A stretch of 25,115 nucleotides of DNA from a virus. Taxonomy: Duplodnaviria > Heunggongvirae > Uroviricota > Caudoviricetes. Shown piece by piece: positions 2,565 through 21,513 of the stretch (within the stretch, counting starts at the first letter, position 1; each line of letters opens with the position of its first letter). Where the stretch lies: the IMG/VR virus record IMGVR_UViG_2541047736_000010, positions 1-25,115 of that record; one strand, written 5' to 3'. Below the pieces are notes generated by a model, which was not told where the DNA came from, ran no database searches, and saw nothing but the letters and a program-made list of their open reading frames with translations. Both the position numbers and the translations under genes were made by a program.

Positions 2565-3258
2565 CCGGGACTGCAGTGTCTCCCGGACGTCATCCGGAAG
2601 ATGGCTGTAGGGGTTGCCATCCACCTTATGGCTGCCGCTGTAAATCAGAGTGATTTCCACACCCTGTTTCTCCAGCGCAGCACCGTAATTACTGTGAGCC
2701 ATCATGACGCCGATGGAGCCTGTCCGGGCGGTCTGCGTGACCAGACGCCGGGAGGCGGCACTGGCAAGCAGCTGACCTGCACTGCAGTTCATGTCGTTGG
2801 CCAGCGCCCATACCGGTTTTATGTCACGCACACGGGCGATGATGTCAGCGCAGTCAAATGCCCCCGCCACCATCCCGCCGGGCGTGTCCATATCGAGCAG
2901 AATGCCGTCCACCATCGGATCGCTGGCAGCCTGTTGCAGACGGGCGATAATGCCGTTGTAACCGGTCATCCCCGAGTACGGCTGCAGCGCCCGCGTCCGG
3001 CTGACCAGCGTGCCGGACACCGGCAGCACGGCGATGCCGTTCATGACCTGATAACTGCGGGCCTGTCGTGGTCCGTCATCATCACCGGATAACGCCAGCG
3101 CCGCGGGTGCCTCTCCGGCAGTCAGGCTGTCGCCGGATACTGCATCCGTCAGGCAGCTGATCCCAAGCTGGCCTGCAAGCGCACAAAAGAAAACCCGCGC
3201 ATAGGCGGGTTCAAGCATCAGCGGCTCATTAAAAGCCATGCTGGCAATATGCGGGAGA

Positions 3259-3278
<20 letters not shown>
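1959..3278 (-). CDS. C: Head maturation protease / minor capsid protein C
   Basis: (V)TAELRNLPHIASMAFNEPLMLEPAYARVFF...NDLLNTPV recognised as lambda gpC (439 aa). The track ORF extends upstream; the annotated start is the Val/GTG codon at 3276-3278, giving the lambda length of 1320 nt. Confidence 0.9.
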
Positions 3279-6959
<3,681 letters not shown>

Positions 6960-6985
<26 letters not shown>

Positions 6986-7505
6986 TCAGCAACCCCGGTA
7001 TCAGTTCATCCAGCGCGGCTGCTTTGTTCATGGCTTTGATGATATCCCGTTTCAGGAAATCAACATGTCGGTTTTCCAGTTCCGGAAAACGCCGCTGCAC
7101 CGACAGGGGGAGCCCGTCGAGAATACTGGCAATTTCACCTGCGATCCGCGACAACACGAAAGTACAGAATGCGGTTTCCACCACTTCAGCGGAGTCTCTG
7201 GCATTCTTCAGTTCCTGTGCGTCGGCCTGCGCACGCGTAAGTCGATGGCGTTCGTACTCAATAGTTCCTGGCTGGAGATCTGCCTCGCTGGCCTGCCGCA
7301 GTTCTTCAACCTCCCGGCGCAGCTTTTCGTTCTCAATTTCAGCATCCCTTTCGGCATACCATTTTATGACGGCGGCAGAGTCATAAAGCACCTCATTACC
7401 CTTGCCACCGCCTCGCAGAACGGGCATTCCCTGTTCCTGCCAGTTCTGAATGGTACGGATACTCGCACCGAAAATGTCAGCCAGCTGCTTTTTGTTGACT
7501 TCCAT
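6960..7505 (-). CDS. Nu1: Terminase small subunit Nu1
   Basis: 181-aa ORF MEVNKKQLADIFGASIRTIQNWQEQGMPVLRGGGKGNEVLYDSAAVIKWYAERD... recognised as lambda gpNu1. Its 3' end overlaps the A start. Confidence 0.96.
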
Positions 7506-7730
7506 TGTTCATTCCACGGCCAAAAACAGAGAAAGGAAACGACAAAGGCCCAAAAGTTCGTTTTCAGCACCTGTCGTTTCCTTTCTTTTCAGGGGGTATT
7601 TTAAATAAAAACATTAAGTTACGACGAAGAAGAACGGAAACGCCTTAAACCGGAAAATTTTCATAAATAGCGAAAACCCGCGAGGTCGCCGCCCCGTAAC
7701 CTGTCGGATCGCCGGAAAGGACCCGCAAAA
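7506..7730. other. cos packaging site (cosB next to Nu1, cosN, cosQ side)
   Basis: Reverse complement of the recalled lambda left-end sequence runs from the Nu1 start to the 12-mer aggtcgccgccc at 7683-7694 (lambda cohesive end GGGCGGCGACCT). It is followed by cgtaacctgtcggatc..., which matches the recalled lambda right end with a few substitutions. Position immediately upstream of Nu1 is as expected. Confidence 0.85.
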
Positions 7731-7893
7731 TGATAATAATTATCATCTGCATGTCACAACGTGCATCTACGCCATCAAACCACGTCAAATAATCAATTAT
7801 GACGCAGGTATCGTATTAATTGATCTGCATCAACTTAACGTAAAAACAACTTCAGACAATACAAATCAGCGACACTGAATACAGGGCAACCTC

Positions 7894-8127
7894 ATGTCAA
7901 CGAAGAACAGAACCCGCAGAACAACAACCCGCAACATCCGCTTTCCTAACCAAATGATTGAACAAATTAACATCGCTCTTGTTCAAAAAGGGTCCGGGAA
8001 TTTCTCAGCCTGGGTCATTGAAGCCTGCCGCCGGAGACTGTGCTCAGAAAAAAGAGTTTCGCCTGAAGCAAACAAAGAAAAGAGTGACATTACTGAATTG
8101 CTCAGAAAACAGGTTAGACCAGATTGA
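7894..8127 (+). CDS. Small basic protein homologous to the lambda right-end ORF; possible ribbon-helix-helix DNA binder
   Basis: MSTKNRTRRTTTRNIRFPNQMIEQINIALVQKGSGNFSAWVIEACRRRL... I recall a near-identical small ORF near the right end of lambda. Fold assignment is inference from the basic N-terminus plus a short beta-strand/helix pattern. Confidence 0.5.
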   Translation: MSTKNRTRRTTTRNIRFPNQMIEQINIALVQKGSGNFSAWVIEACRRRLCSEKRVSPEANKEKSDITELLRKQVRPD

Positions 8128-8184
8128 AGCAATTTAGATAATCGTGCAGACTACGCCCCCTCATATCACATGGAAGGTACTACA

Positions 8185-8595
8185 ATGGCTCAGGTTGCCA
8201 TTTTTAAACAAATATTCGATAAAGTGCGAAATAATTTAAACTATCACTGGTTTTATTCTGAACTAAAACGTCACAATGTCTCACATTACATTTACTATTT
8301 AGCCACAGAGAATATTCATCTTGTTCTTGAAAACGATAATACGGTTTTAATAAAAGGGCAGGGTAAGGTTGTAAATGTAAGATTTTCAAAAAATAAATGC
8401 CTTATAGAAGCCACCTTAAAAGGATTCAAATCAGGAGAGTTATCATTTTACGAATACAGGAAAAATCTTGCTACAGCAGGGGTTTTCAGATGGATTACAA
8501 ATATCCACGAAAACAAAAGGTATTACTATACCTTTGATAATTCATTACTCTTTACTGAGAACATTCAGAACACTACACAAATATTTCCGCACTAA
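8185..8595 (+). CDS. ybcV: YbcV-like prophage protein (DUF1398)
   Basis: [58 protein letters not shown]...[23 protein letters not shown] resembles recalled E. coli DLP12 YbcV. Start placed at the internal ATG 8185, which gives 136 aa and has GGAAGG 7 nt upstream. Gene is visibly AT-rich. Confidence 0.7.
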
Positions 8596-9183
8596 ATCAT
8601 AACGTCCGGTTTCTTCCGTGCCAGAACCGGACTCGCTGGCATGATGAAATATGTGTACCCGGTAACCCCGGTGTGCATCGTTTTTGATTATTCCCGCACA
8701 CTCGCGCAGAAGGAGTTCCCCGTCGGGCTACGGTCTCTGTTAATACGGGAATACGGCGACGATACAGCGCATGATGTGTCAGGCTTGAATACCTTTATCC
8801 TTTAAAAGGGATATCAGTTAAGTTATCCCGTGTAGGGTATAAGCCATTATCAAAGCCACTCTGTAGGGAATGGCTTTTGTGATGGCATCACTTACTCTTT
8901 ACGCTGCTATCCCACTCATCCCGGAATTTTGATGGGTTATTGAAACCTTCTGCTGACATAACAACTCCTTCAATGTTTGGCTGAAATTAGGATGTCTTTC
9001 CATCAGTCCGCCACCACAAAGAATCTTTTTTGCCATAAGGCAGGAGGTTCATCTTTCAGTGGCTGCCGGTGTTATTTCCCCACTTACTGGCTTAGGTTGT
9101 TTCGTGGTACTGCCGTTAACTGGTGGCCCAGAATAAATTCCGGTTTCATTATCAAGCCCACCCGTAAATGGGCTTTGTAATGG

Positions 9184-9453
9184 CTACTTCACTTTTGCTT
9201 TTGCTTTTGCTTCCGCTCGCTTACGCCGGCGCTCTTCTTTCCTCTCGGCTTTTGCCATGTCCATGAATGCCTGCATGATCGAGTTCCGCATCATGTAGCT
9301 AACAAAGTGATGATTGACACAGCCGTTGAGGCGCAGCTGCTCGCCAAACTCATCCACCGAGGCCAATGCTTCCATCATGCCCTTCTCGCCTTTCATGAAC
9401 TCTGAGAAGTCGCGCCCCGCTCTGGAGGCGCATTCAATAACACGATCACTCAT
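9184..9453 (-). CDS. Hypothetical protein with a highly charged KAERKEERRRKRAEAKAKAK C-terminal tail
   Basis: 89-aa ORF whose ATG (9451-9453) overlaps the stop of the upstream KilA-N gene, suggesting translational coupling. No family recognised. Confidence 0.45.
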   Translation of the reverse strand: MSDRVIECASRAGRDFSEFMKGEKGMMEALASVDEFGEQLRLNGCVNHHFVSYMMRNSIMQAFMDMAKAERKEERRRKRAEAKAKAKVK

Positions 9454-12320: not shown

Positions 12321-13262
12321 ATGGCTACTATTGCGCAATCAAAGAAACAAAAAAAACTTAAAATTGGTTTTTACACCAGCAGTTCTGGGACTATCCGCAG
12401 CCATTCAGTTGCTAAGCAAGCAATTGAAAATCTGTATAATACTTGCGTAACCGTTACGAATAATCATTTTGATACCATCTATAGAAATAAAAAGTTAAAA
12501 ATAGCTTTTATAAATAAAGATACAAAAGCTAAATATTTCTTCGGCTACATGTCATGCTCACGAGAAGAGTATCTCCTTCCTTATATTGGTGATGAATACT
12601 GGAATGAGCACAACATACCACTAGATGATAAAAAATACATAGTCGAAAGAACCTATTTTTTATATTATTACGATAGTGATATTTTAATATTAACTCAAAA
12701 TCATCTTGGGCCGAAAGAATCGGATTTAGCTTATCTGCTTTACAGCCAGAGTGGTAATCCTGGAAATAACTTTTCATTCCAAGCCATCTGGAAAAAAGAG
12801 AGCGTCAAAGAGCTACTTGAAACAGGAAGTACTTTGAGAAGTTGTGATATTGTCCTGGCTGCTCCCAGGAACTTTGATGCAACAAATTACCAGTTAAATA
12901 GTTCATTTTCTAAGGAACTGGTAAATATGATGGTAGGGCTGGGTGGAACACATCTCAAGTTAAATCTAAGGGGACGTGCATCAGGGAGAGTAAAAGTCAA
13001 AGGTTATTTATCAGATCTCGTTAAGGATGGTATTAAAGAACTCCTTGAAAAAATGCCGGGAATTGTAAAAAAAGCGGCAGTAACACAGCCCAAAAATACC
13101 GTTGAACAAAGTCTTCTTGATCAGGTACTCATTTCAGAAAAAAACATATATACCGTTAATGGTTATGGCACTGATAGTGATGTTCTGCAAGCCATGATTT
13201 CTGCTAAAATTGATAACAATGAATACCTTAAGCAATACGATATCAGCAAAAAGAAGGTATAG
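12321..13262 (+). CDS. Unknown 313-aa soluble protein; first gene of an AT-rich two-gene cassette (candidate RexA-like sensor)
   Basis: ATG at 12321 with AAGG 6 nt upstream. Visibly AT-rich and lysine-rich. On the strand opposite all surrounding phage genes. Stop is 3 nt before the next gene's ATG. No family confidently recognised by eye. Confidence 0.7.
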   Translation: MATIAQSKKQKKLKIGFYTSSSGTIRSHSVAKQAIENLYNTCVTVTNNHFDTIYRNKKLKIAFINKDTKAKYFFGYMSCSREEYLLPYIGDEYWNEHNIPLDDKKYIVERTYFLYYYDSDILILTQNHLGPKESDLAYLLYSQSGNPGNNFSFQAIWKKESVKELLETGSTLRSCDIVLAAPRNFDATNYQLNSSFSKELVNMMVGLGGTHLKLNLRGRASGRVKVKGYLSDLVKDGIKELLEKMPGIVKKAAVTQPKNTVEQSLLDQVLISEKNIYTVNGYGTDSDVLQAMISAKIDNNEYLKQYDISKKKV

Positions 13263-13265
13263 GAT

Positions 13266-13709
13266 ATGTTATTGAAATACTTAAGAAACCTGATTGTAAG
13301 TGTTTTTTGCACCTTGTTCCTACTGAGGTATATCCCTCAGATGGGGCATGCTGACATACTTACAGCCTCCGGGGTTATTTCAACTGTATCCGGTATTTTA
13401 TTTGGTTTTATTTTAGCCACAATATCAATTTTTAGTGCTGCTAGTGAAAACTCAAATGGAATAATAAAAGCATTAAAAAACAACAACATACTTCAAGTTA
13501 TTATTGTAAATCTATTAACCGCCGGTGCATCTTTAATTACGGCATGCGTTATTGCTTTGATAGCAATGTTTGCCAATGAAAAGACATTGTTACATGGAGA
13601 AAAAATAGAATTTATTTTAATTATCGAATCTTTATCTCTTCTTATCATTTCAGTAATAACTTTTGCCTTTACATGGAGAAAAGTAAACTGGATACTCCCC
13701 CACATTTAA
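13266..13709 (+). CDS. Small polytopic membrane protein (about four TM helices); candidate RexB-like channel/effector
   Basis: 147 aa with four hydrophobic stretches (about residues 9-23, 31-59, 75-102, 115-136). Tightly coupled to the upstream gene. From memory, lambda RexB is 144 aa with four TM helices and an FRHYIPG stretch in its first helix; this protein has LLRYIPQMG at the same place. Confidence 0.75.
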   Translation: MLLKYLRNLIVSVFCTLFLLRYIPQMGHADILTASGVISTVSGILFGFILATISIFSAASENSNGIIKALKNNNILQVIIVNLLTAGASLITACVIALIAMFANEKTLLHGEKIEFILIIESLSLLIISVITFAFTWRKVNWILPHI

Positions 13710-19205: not shown

Positions 19206-19302
19206 ACGCCCTCCAAACTAAGTTTTATTAGATGCTAATTACAAATCTATCTTTGGTCAATAAAAACTAAGATTACTTAGCAATTCAAGAAATGGTGCTC
19301 CT
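19206..19302. promoter_or_regulatory. Immunity operator/promoter region (OR-like) with CTAA-N6-TTAG dyads
   Basis: 14-bp dyads ctaagttttattag (19217-19230) and ctaagattacttag (19266-19279), plus an overlapping ATTAG-atg-CTAAT palindrome (19226-19238). Lies between the divergent cI-like and cro-like genes. Confidence 0.6.
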
Positions 19303-19929
19303 ATGGAAACGGTTGGTCAGCGTATAAAAGCTCTGAGAAGAGTTACCGGAACGTCCCAGAAAGAATTGGGTAAATTTTGTGGAGTAAGCGACGTTGCTGT
19401 GGGGTACTGGGAGAAAGACATCAATACCCCTGGTGGGGAGGCACTTTCGAAATTAGCGAAGTTCTTCAATACGTCAATAGATTACATTCTTTATGGTGCT
19501 GAGTTTGAAGGCAAACTCGTCACAAACATGCGCAGAGTTCCTGTAATATCGTGGGTTCAGGCTGGGCAGTTTACTGAGTGCAGGGCAGCAGAAGTGTTTA
19601 GTGAAGTGGACAAGTGGGTAGATACATCATTAAAGATTGGTGATAACTCATTTGCATTAGAGGTTAAAGGTGACTCCATGACTAACCCTAATGGCCTCCC
19701 AACAATACCAGAAGGCGCAACAGTGATTGTAGATCCAGATGCAGAACCTCGTCATGGAAAAATAGTCATCGCTCGACTTGATGGAACAAACGAAGCTACA
19801 GTAAAAAAATTAGTCATCGATGGCCCTCAAAAGTTTTTAGTGCCATTAAATCCTCGGTATCCCAACATCCCTATCAATGGTAATTGCCTTATCATTGGTG
19901 TAGTCAAAGGAGTTCAATACGAACTCTAA
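19303..19929 (+). CDS. CI-type prophage repressor (HTH plus S24 LexA-like autopeptidase domain)
   Basis: N-terminal XRE-type HTH (QKELGKFCGVSDVAVGYWEKD). C-terminal S24 signature with GDSM (catalytic Ser) and VKKL (Lys). No strong ribosome-binding site, so possibly leaderless like lambda cI from pRM. Confidence 0.9.
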   Translation: METVGQRIKALRRVTGTSQKELGKFCGVSDVAVGYWEKDINTPGGEALSKLAKFFNTSIDYILYGAEFEGKLVTNMRRVPVISWVQAGQFTECRAAEVFSEVDKWVDTSLKIGDNSFALEVKGDSMTNPNGLPTIPEGATVIVDPDAEPRHGKIVIARLDGTNEATVKKLVIDGPQKFLVPLNPRYPNIPINGNCLIIGVVKGVQYEL

Positions 19930-19994
19930 GACCTCTCTTCTCTAACTAAGGCACCGAACTAAGAAAAGTTTGGTGTTTTCTCTTGCCATAATAA

Positions 19995-20008
19995 CTAAGT
20001 TAAGTTAG
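19995..20008. promoter_or_regulatory. Additional operator-like dyad downstream of cI
   Basis: ctaagttaagttag has the same CTAA-N6-TTAG architecture as the OR dyads. Three further AACTAAG half-site-like copies lie at 19944, 19957 and 19993. Confidence 0.35.
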
Positions 20009-20094
20009 ATTTTATATCAAAGATAACGAACAGGCAGGACGCCCACGAAGTAGCCGCCTGGGGCATATGAAGTCCAGGATGATTCGTTAGCAAC

Positions 20095-20116
20095 AAAAAA
20101 GCGCCCTACAGGACGC
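20095..20116 (-). terminator. Weak candidate terminator for the minus-strand gene convergent with cI
   Basis: Short imperfect hairpin gcgccctacaggacgc (20101-20116) preceded on the plus strand by aaaaaa (a U-tract on the minus strand). About 45 bp downstream of the 173-aa gene stop. Confidence 0.3.
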
Positions 20117-20159
20117 TTAGCTCTTTAACAATCTGGGTATCATCCAACCAATGCAAGAT

Positions 20160-20681
20160 TTAAGGAATCCAAGGCGAATTCAGATCTCGCCCCAACTCAC
20201 GTAATGATCTTGGTCGTTCGTACATCGGATTTTTTTCCATAAGAAATTTATTTTCACAGTGAAGGCAACGGCTTGTAAGAAAATGAGAAGTTTTACCTAC
20301 TGGAAGCGGATGAAGTATCGATTTTATATTTTTGGAATAACAAAGTGGGCACAGATGCACAGTTATTTCTTTTCCACTCACAATTTCATTTTTAGAGTAA
20401 ACAAAAGCACCAGAGTCAAGCTGATCAAGGACATATCCTTCTACCTTGGCACAAAAATCTTCAAACTCTGCAATTTTTGCTTTGAGATGCATCACCTCTT
20501 CATCACGAAGGCGGATCGCATCGCCAAGAGAGAAGCATTCTGCCTGAAGCGTGATTAGTTTGTTCTGGAGTTCAATGGTTGCAGCTTTAACTTCTGCATC
20601 CGTTTTCGCGTCATTAATAACCTTAGCAAGACCGGCAGTCTCCTTTATAGCGGCCATAGCCGCAGACAGTTCAGCTATCAC
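20160..20681 (-). CDS. Coiled-coil plus zinc-ribbon protein of unknown function in the immunity region
   Basis: 173 aa. N-terminal ~75 residues are heptad-like and charged. C-terminus has CPLC ... CLHC (C-x2-C ... C-x2-C). AT-rich gene, convergent with cI. Start ambiguous: GTG at 20681 or ATG at 20657. Confidence 0.6.
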   Translation of the reverse strand: MIAELSAAMAAIKETAGLAKVINDAKTDAEVKAATIELQNKLITLQAECFSLGDAIRLRDEEVMHLKAKIAEFEDFCAKVEGYVLDQLDSGAFVYSKNEIVSGKEITVHLCPLCYSKNIKSILHPLPVGKTSHFLTSRCLHCENKFLMEKNPMYERPRSLRELGRDLNSPWIP

Positions 20682-21010
20682 GTTGAATACTCAGCTAGTT
20701 GTTGGGGATATCCAGATTAACCAAATCCTTGTTGTTGGGGAATAACTAGGTCCACCTCGCCTGATGTGGCTAAAAGCAGGCACATAACAGCTAAGTATTT
20801 TCAACCAGAGAGAATCCTTAGCGTTGTGGTGAATGCGGCTCAGCGCACGCGGGTTAAGGTTGAGGCTGACAGTCGACCTTCTGTGGATACCCACCCGCCT
20901 GGTGTGCAACCTTCGCCAGGCACCGGGAGGCACCCGGCACCACAACTTTATGCTGTGTGTAGTCCTGGCGGTATCAGCTTGTACCCTTGCTTCCGGCTGG
21001 TACCGTCCTT

Positions 21011-21105
21011 TTTACAAAACAGAGAAGAGCATCACCGGACGACGGGCTCATAACCCAATCCATCCGGGCGGCTGCCACCGCAGGTGTTCTTCTCTGTTTT
21101 GTGGA
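21011..21105 (+). other. Long imperfect hairpin in the early-left leader (candidate cis-acting RNA element)
   Basis: 17 contiguous pairs (16 Watson-Crick plus one G-U) between 21014-21030 (acaaaacagagaagagc) and 21086-21102 (gttcttctctgttttgt), enclosing a 55-nt GC-rich loop with sub-hairpins. No U-tract follows on either strand. Lies just upstream of the first early-left gene. Confidence 0.4.
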
Positions 21106-21150
21106 GAAACCAACCGACCCTGCAGGGTCGATATGATGGGGAGCAGCAAA

Positions 21151-21513
21151 ATGGCTAGCGAACGCAGTACTGATGTGCAGGCATTTATCGGGGAGCTGGA
21201 CGGCGGCGTATTTGAAACCAAAATCGGCGCAGTTCTCAGTGAAGTCGCTTCCGGTGTGATGAACACGAAAACCAAAGGTAAGGTCTCGCTCAACCTGGAA
21301 ATCGAACCGTTTGATGAGAACCGTGTAAAAATCAAACACAAACTCTCATATGTTCGCCCGACTAACCGCGGGAAAATTTCCGAAGAAGACACCACCGAAA
21401 CGCCGATGTATGTCAATCGCGGTGGTCGCCTGACTATTCTGCAGGAAGACCAGGGACAATTACTGACTCTTGCCGGTGAACCTGACGGAAAACTCCGCGC
21501 AGCAGGTCGTTAA
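21151..21513 (+). CDS. yfdP: YfdP-like prophage protein
   Basis: MASERSTDVQAFIGELDGGVFETKIGAVLSEVASGV... Start placed at ATG 21151 (GGGGAG 7 nt upstream), giving 120 aa; alternative ATG at 21133. The track ORF extends further upstream through implausible sequence. Adjacent to the YfdQ/R/S/T homologues, as in CPS-53. Confidence 0.65.
   Translation: MASERSTDVQAFIGELDGGVFETKIGAVLSEVASGVMNTKTKGKVSLNLEIEPFDENRVKIKHKLSYVRPTNRGKISEEDTTETPMYVNRGGRLTILQEDQGQLLTLAGEPDGKLRAAGR

Follow-up and report, generated by a model that had tools for sequence, protein, structure and literature searches.

Introduction

Ring-interacting pore 1 (Rip1), an antiphage protein, is said to have been described by Patel et al. 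(Nature 651:1060-1067, 2026; doi 10.1038/s41586-025-10075-1). The gene considered here occupies positions 20160-20681, minus strand, of a 25,115-nucleotide stretch of viral DNA (IMG/VR record IMGVR_UViG_2541047736_000010; the whole stretch is called the window), and its product very probably belongs, as judged by homology, to the same family. Rip1 is a lysogen-protecting single protein encoded by prophages and is non-toxic by itself, and its homologues are widespread in Proteobacteria, chiefly in prophages (PMC13434031, a review; PMC13601566; PMC12908700, a meeting report). Escaper mutations fall in the portal for phages of Pseudomonas, and for those of E. coli in the small terminase (PMC13434031). 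By cryo-electron microscopy, a small terminase 11-mer ring is encircled by 12 Rip1 protomers (PMC13434031, PMC12908700). The pore is built by the N-terminal amphipathic helices, the C-terminal half being in contact with the ring; the assembled complex makes liposomes leak dye and perforates cells, which die prematurely, ahead of phage maturation (PMC13434031, PMC13601566, PMC12908700). In P. aeruginosa, the Rip1 gene is placed between the small and large terminase genes (PMC13434031).

Relationship of the window protein to Rip1

The window protein matches phrog_1244 ('unknown function') of PHROGs over its full length with an E value of 2.7e-52, and the same family also covers HK446 gp37 (E 2.2e-53) and JBD30_030 (E 2.7e-61) over nearly the full profile length. 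In a phmmer search against PDB sequences, residues 5-151 of the query were aligned with residues 15-160 of the 164-residue chain 9oox_L, named 'ring interacting pore 1 (Rip1)' (E 1.8e-9), and a profile built from 36 homologues reached this chain at E 3.7e-20. The PDB title of 9OOX is 'Escherichia phage HK446 Rip1 in complex with T6 small terminase'. BLASTP of the window protein against JBD30_030 gave an E value of 3e-20 at 30% identity. The gene and the parts of its product are as follows.

20160-20681, minus strand: putative Rip1-family coding sequence, GTG start, 173 aa (open reading frame listing, PHROG 1244, PDB 9oox, AlphaFold2 model, Foldseek, purifying selection)
Residues 2-24 and 28-79: predicted helices (AlphaFold2 model)
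Residues 84-150: predicted beta-rich C-terminal domain (AlphaFold2 model)
Residues 151-173: variable tail

The AlphaFold2 model, computed from a 36-sequence alignment, has a mean predicted local distance difference test score of 91.9, and Foldseek superposes it on 9OOX with probability 1.0 and a template modelling score of 0.71; the structure prediction proposed as a check in an earlier note, made from the letters of this DNA alone, was thereby answered with a confident fold. In the model, the N-terminal long helices and the C-terminal domain together are superposable on the solved 9OOX chain, as expected of a Rip1-type fold. The heptad-like N-terminal half pointed out in that note coincides with the predicted helices, and an a/d heptad pattern can be read directly from the sequence at residues 31-77. 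Its C-x2-C ... C-x2-C C-terminus corresponds to C111-x2-C114 and C139-x2-C142 in the C-terminal domain, which are invariant among 36 close sequences. Furthermore, the four cysteines and Q46 are invariant in a 16-sequence alignment of the window protein, HK446, JBD30 and 13 distant representatives. Within the clade, the mean pairwise identity is 47% in the C-terminal domain versus 68% in the helical half, from which we infer that the domain expected to contact the ring has diversified. A hydropathy scan revealed no classical transmembrane segment (maximum Kyte-Doolittle value 1.02, over residues 1-18); this result is compatible with a soluble pro-form and says nothing on pore formation.

Neither Pfam nor NCBIfam nor PADLOC 2023 gave an informative match to the window protein, the only signal being weak coiled-coil noise, and Foldseek against viral predicted structures returned unnamed proteins only. 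The protein had not been recognised before, which still holds for the models of these three collections and no longer holds for the family, as Rip1 was described in 2026. We assign the protein to the Rip1 family because it has a full-length PDB match, shares PHROG 1244 with HK446 gp37 and JBD30_030, adopts the predicted fold and retains the invariant residues. A Rip1-type system is expected to be a lone gene of about 145-180 aa, without a partner and mostly in prophages. The window gene agrees with this, as it resides in an E. coli prophage and persists in 79 loci although the genes around it change (at least 4 repressor types, different early genes). Taken together, the window protein is, with high probability, a divergent and unannotated member of the Rip1 family that would act, by homology, as a single-protein abortive-infection defence of the prophage. 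Resistance of the Rip1 type without toxicity of the protein alone, ring-triggered assembly and a membrane pore would then be ascribed to it by analogy with the characterised members. The earlier suggestion of an exclusion or defence moron near the immunity region agrees well with this homology to an experimentally characterised antiphage protein.

The same note had also offered a nucleic-acid-binding sensor or an antirepressor-type regulator, a proposal that loses its footing given the lack of a Pfam, NCBIfam or PADLOC match and the protein ring contacted by the C-terminal half of Rip1. In the broader form of this idea, the coiled coil and the zinc ribbon would be those of a regulator or chaperone with nucleic acid or a transcription factor as its binding partner, be it an antirepressor, a sensor or an analogue of CT398/HP0958. 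The likeness to the CT398/HP0958 type lies in the coiled-coil and zinc-ribbon architecture, but the structural match has a root-mean-square deviation of 5.7 at 9% identity, the genomic context differs and no sequence relationship was detected. At E<=0.1, no Pfam or NCBIfam match to DksA/TraR, CT398-type or DNA-binding zinc-ribbon families was obtained, sub-threshold coiled-coil families only being returned, and no zinc-finger/coiled-coil profile of the DksA/TraR or CT398 type describes the protein. As the sequence homology is unambiguously to Rip1, we regard such a regulator as highly improbable.

The gene is under purifying selection

The AT-rich 173-aa open reading frame (ORF) that the earlier note had placed opposite to and convergent with cI is confirmed by the ORF listing, with a GC content of 41.4% and 32% at third codon positions, compared with 49.9% for the window. 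In RefSeq (E. coli MEI008, NZ_CP074680, regional nucleotide identity 99.9%), the same coding sequence is WP_000559913.1, a 'hypothetical protein', and a literature search for WP_000559913 found no mention in any paper. Among public contigs, at least 1000 encode the exact protein, always under that name, and of 5426 complete E. coli genomes 54 (about 1%) have a near-identical allele.

Such a GTG-initiated ORF with a weak ribosome-binding site, called a 'hypothetical protein' in every database, might be taken for a chance, non-functional frame antisense to the pL leader. By comparison, the frame is unbroken in 79 of 80 related viral contigs (IMG/VR loci), the outcome of a conservation check that had been proposed beforehand, and pairwise ratios of nonsynonymous to synonymous substitution rates (dN/dS) against the window gene range from 0.10 to 0.38 over 19 diverse loci, 18 of which retain the GTG start. 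A word-indexed search yielded 167 homologues of the window protein at E<=1e-3, and an exhaustive profile search yielded 2494 cluster representatives (50% identity) at the same threshold, 774 of them with E<=1e-10. Nearly all of the best 150 of the 2494 representatives are 140-211 aa long with one matched stretch each, and the few shorter entries among them are apparently truncated. The ORF is more than chance because of these homologue counts, the conserved GTG start and dN/dS values of 0.10-0.38; with the confident fold and the solved homologue in addition, the chance reading has a negligible probability and is already refuted by conservation. The ORF 20160-20681 is a genuine gene under purifying selection.

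Some deposited records of related genes deserve mention. The contig IMGVR_UViG_2695420548_000003 (L025) carries a tandem same-strand pair of Rip1-like genes, whose products share 34% and 74% identity with the window protein and which may represent stacked sensors. For the Rip1-like gene of PhiR29_1 (L003:3133-3861), the deposited start is a GTG further upstream, which yields 242 aa and takes the frame through the conserved promoter module described below; the conserved start gives 171 aa. Likewise, deposited ORFs in the SfIV gp35/gp34 region (L005) are over-extended or mis-called.

Comparison with known systems

Our comparison reveals that HK446 Rip1 (gp37, YP_007111990.1; 9OOX) is the closest positional analogue of the window gene. 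Both belong to PHROG 1244, align over their full length, are of similar size (164 aa for HK446 Rip1, 173 aa for the window protein) and share a helical hairpin followed by a four-cysteine beta domain, in the window protein by prediction; both genes are stand-alone, reside in lambdoid E. coli phages and lie antisense near the start of the pL operon. The differences are in sequence (only 24-25% identity), in the additional variable C-terminal tail of residues 151-173, which HK446 Rip1 lacks, and in position. The HK446 gene sits just after N and converges on it, whereas the window gene lies directly after pL and boxA in a phage without a recognisable N.

Homologues in Pseudomonas aeruginosa Mu-like prophages (JBD30_030, D3112 orf25, DMS3 and MP38) likewise fall in PHROG 1244 and are opposite in strand to the lytic genes around them. 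JBD30_030 lies in antisense, flanked by a DUF1804 DNA-binding (small-terminase-like) gene and terL, whereas the window gene is at the immunity region. This placement fits the description of P. aeruginosa Rip1 in PMC13434031, and JBD30_030 may be the protein studied there or a homologue of it. In addition, a 35%-identical remote homologue lies in antisense with lysis genes on one side and terminase genes on the other, and two further remote homologues are found outside obvious prophages.

In lambda, RexAB is a pair of proteins whose genes share the pRM transcript of cI and are located to the cI side of oL/pL. RexAB resembles the proposed function of the window gene in being a prophage abortive-infection system near cI that is expressed in the lysogen and ends in loss of membrane potential. 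By contrast, the window gene, which lies past the predicted pL and is read from the other strand, encodes a single protein without homology to RexAB. The rexAB-like position first given for it is thus inexact: oL-like palindromes and a pL-like promoter intervene between cI and the ORF, and there is no co-transcription with cI as in a RexAB-type arrangement.

A true Rip1 homologue might also have diverged to another role, such as timing of the phage's own packaging or lysis through Nu1 or portal rings, or exclusion that does not involve a pore. Identity to characterised Rip1 of only 24-30%, a clade-specific variable C-terminal tail (residues 151-173) not found in HK446 Rip1, a resident prophage with its own lambda-type Nu1, gpA and portal, and the occurrence of some distant homologues outside obvious prophages would be in keeping with this. 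However, neither the overall architecture nor the invariant residues have been lost, the gene is antisense to and apart from the packaging and lysis genes, and the alternative cargo found at the same position, together with the many related phages that lack the gene, argues against a core phage function. We therefore consider a diverged role improbable and retain the assignment to a Rip1-type defence.

Predicted arrangement of the early-left control region

The window represents a lambdoid SfV/CPS-53-like E. coli prophage at thrW/proA (tRNA-Thr/proA) and encodes lambda-type Nu1 (6960-7505), gpA, portal (3259-4860) and capsid. The elements around the ORF are listed below.

19303-19929, plus strand: cI-like LexA/S24-family repressor gene, convergent with the ORF (ORF listing, RefSeq)
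19959-19972 and 19995-20008, no strand assigned: oL-like operators CTAAGnnnnCTTAG (repeat search)
19983-20011, plus strand: predicted pL, sigma70-like, TTGCCA-17-TAGATT (promoter scan)
20120-20131, plus strand: exact rrn-type boxA GCTCTTTAACAA in the pL leader (sole exact match in the window)
21151-21513, plus strand: yfdP, with which protein coding begins in the early-left operon after read-through of the antisense cargo (RefSeq)

The operator palindrome is also found at 19218-19231 and 19267-19280, between cI and cro, as oR copies, and the copy at 19995-20008 overlaps the predicted pL. At the aligned position, the heteroimmune phages SfV, SfIV and PhiR29_1 have TTGACA-N17-ATAATG together with their own operator repeats, and conservation among all of these phages starts right after it, at about window position 20025. 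Region 19959-20011 is accordingly predicted, from these sequence features, to be oL/pL. As oL/pL lies between cI and the ORF, the ORF is downstream of pL and antisense inside the early-left unit; it is antisense to yfdP, yfdQ, yfdR and the later genes (21151 onward, plus strand), followed by xis and int.

The boxA sequence, which we take to be identical to the E. coli rrn boxA core of the rrn antitermination sites, is followed after 28 nt by the 3′ end of the antisense ORF and lies about 100 nt downstream of the predicted pL. Read on the plus strand, a hairpin at 20099-20118 directly precedes it, and no N-like gene was recognised in the window phage. The combination of the hairpin and an exact boxA without an N gene suggests that antitermination of the early-left operon is N-independent and of the Nus-factor type. 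The idea of a put-like, structured RNA as antiterminator was dropped in favour of the exact boxA, as the pL leader (20015-20145) folds no better than shuffled sequences (z -0.84).

Rfam reported nothing in the window at the gathering threshold. Below it, a full-model match to the prophage small RNA STnc100 (RF02076) was seen at 20793-21015, plus strand (40.5 bits versus a gathering threshold of 47, E 6e-7), with a weak DicF-like match at 20954-21008. Region 20793-21015 is GC-rich and conserved and lies between the cargo slot and yfdP; RefSeq has a 'frameshifted hypothetical protein' at 20826-21136. STnc100 is related to the PasD prophage small RNAs (2026 preprint).

A cargo slot with conserved flanks

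The window gene is flanked by elements that recur in related phages.

20118->20099, minus strand: intrinsic terminator, 8-bp stem with 5 GC pairs, then TTTTTTGTT (terminator scan, fold; conserved in loci with minus-strand cargo)
20130-20142, plus strand: left inverted-repeat arm AATCTGGGTATCA, 13 nt, just past the ORF stop codon
20682-20752, minus strand: putative promoter/5′ untranslated region module of the slot (conservation across loci)
20698-20708 and 20731-20741, minus strand: direct repeats TCCCCAACAAC (11-14 nt), 33 nt apart, flanking the -10-like element (repeat search)
20706-20718, minus strand: inverted-repeat arm AATCTGGATATCC (repeat search)
20716-20722, minus strand: -10-like element GGTTAAT, TGTATAAT or TGCGATAAT in other loci, with a probable promoter role

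The gene was earlier credited with its own upstream region, which is real: across diverse loci it is better conserved than the coding sequence, and roughly 55 nt upstream of the Rip1-like start are common to phages with phrog_5286 cargo. The module 20682-20752 is probably the promoter of the cargo gene. The downstream terminator had been called weak, a description at odds with an 8-bp stem that includes 5 GC pairs and is followed by the tract listed above. In an inverted-repeat scan, 6 matches at <=2 mismatches were found versus 0.8 expected, the best two of which flank the ORF, and the inverted repeat is a perfect 13-mer in most other loci. Possible roles for the 13-nt inverted repeat and the direct repeats include 5′-3′ pairing of the mRNA, an RNase III site in RNA read through from pL, binding of a regulator and a recombination scar. 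An invertible element marked by the inverted repeat is unlikely, no inverted copy being present in 79 loci.

Other phages whose flanks are the same carry different genes at this position.

vB_EcoM-689R6 and SfIV: 144-aa phrog_5286 gene (minus strand; in locus L002 at 2956-3390) and 68-aa phrog_1744 gene (plus strand; in locus L002 at 2778-2984)
SfV: 98-aa phrog_3195 gene (L004:2591-2887, plus strand)

When IMG/VR was scanned with the promoter module, 103 analysable loci were obtained, of which 34 carry Rip1-like cargo, 63 phrog_5286-like cargo and 6 other cargo; an exact boxA lies 530-700 nt from the module in 93 of the 103. A 99%-identical Rip1-like allele is paired with at least 4 repressor genes, and diverged alleles are paired with different early genes. 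The gene thus moves with the slot, not with one immunity type. No Pfam or PADLOC match was found for phrog_5286, phrog_1744 or phrog_3195, and phrog_5286, the sole alternative cargo searched against PDB sequences, gave no match there. Because the alternative cargos lack Pfam and PADLOC matches, it is Rip1 alone that would make the slot a 'defence hot spot'.

We tentatively put forward, as a possibility that we think has the odds against it, that these elements constitute a standardised pL-leader cargo slot of SfV/CPS-53-like prophages, in which the convergent, boxA-antiterminated pL would serve as an induction-coupled off-switch that spares the phage's own terminase and portal rings. If this is true, phrog_5286 would be a second defence gene under the same regulation.

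A proposed mode of action

In the lysogen, pL would be repressed by cI and the slot promoter would drive weak transcription of the Rip1-like gene, with translation from the GTG through a weak ribosome-binding site and the transcript ending at 20118->20099. The product may be a soluble protein in which, according to the predicted fold, an N-terminal helical hairpin is joined to a C-terminal four-cysteine beta domain. When an infecting foreign phage builds its late rings, of small terminase or portal, the C-terminal domains would dock around the ring, and the ensuing oligomerisation would gather the amphipathic helices of the N-termini into an inner-membrane pore. By homology to the HK446 and P. 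aeruginosa Rip1 proteins, the pore would kill or lyse the cell early, before progeny mature.

Upon prophage induction, derepressed and probably boxA-antiterminated transcription from pL would cross the whole gene in antisense and may lower Rip1 expression in the late phase of the prophage itself, which could help the prophage to tolerate its own Nu1 and portal rings. Morons commonly lie antisense, and because such placement is common, we keep this shut-off of expression as a hypothesis only.

With the assignment to Rip1, a prophage gene that is common in Enterobacteriaceae acquires a function that can be put to the test. The known concept of Rip1 is extended by this, not changed. The divergent clade, at 24-30% identity, is useful for asking how the variable C-terminal domain encodes trigger specificity, and the antisense siting right after pL and boxA would offer a simple genetic system for studying how a prophage protects itself from its own ring-sensing pore former.

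Other AT-rich islands in the window

Two further AT-rich stretches are encoded opposite to their neighbours. An island of 32-39% GC comprises a gene for a DUF6731 protein (313 aa; 12321-13262, plus strand) and one for a 147-aa protein (13266-13709, plus strand). The 147-aa protein has no family match, and neither protein matches PADLOC; the island 12321-13709 looks like another moron. In addition, a DUF1398 gene (8170-8595, plus strand), opposite in strand to the Nu1/terminase genes and just upstream of them, lies within an AT-rich stretch at 7600-9200 (37-43% GC).
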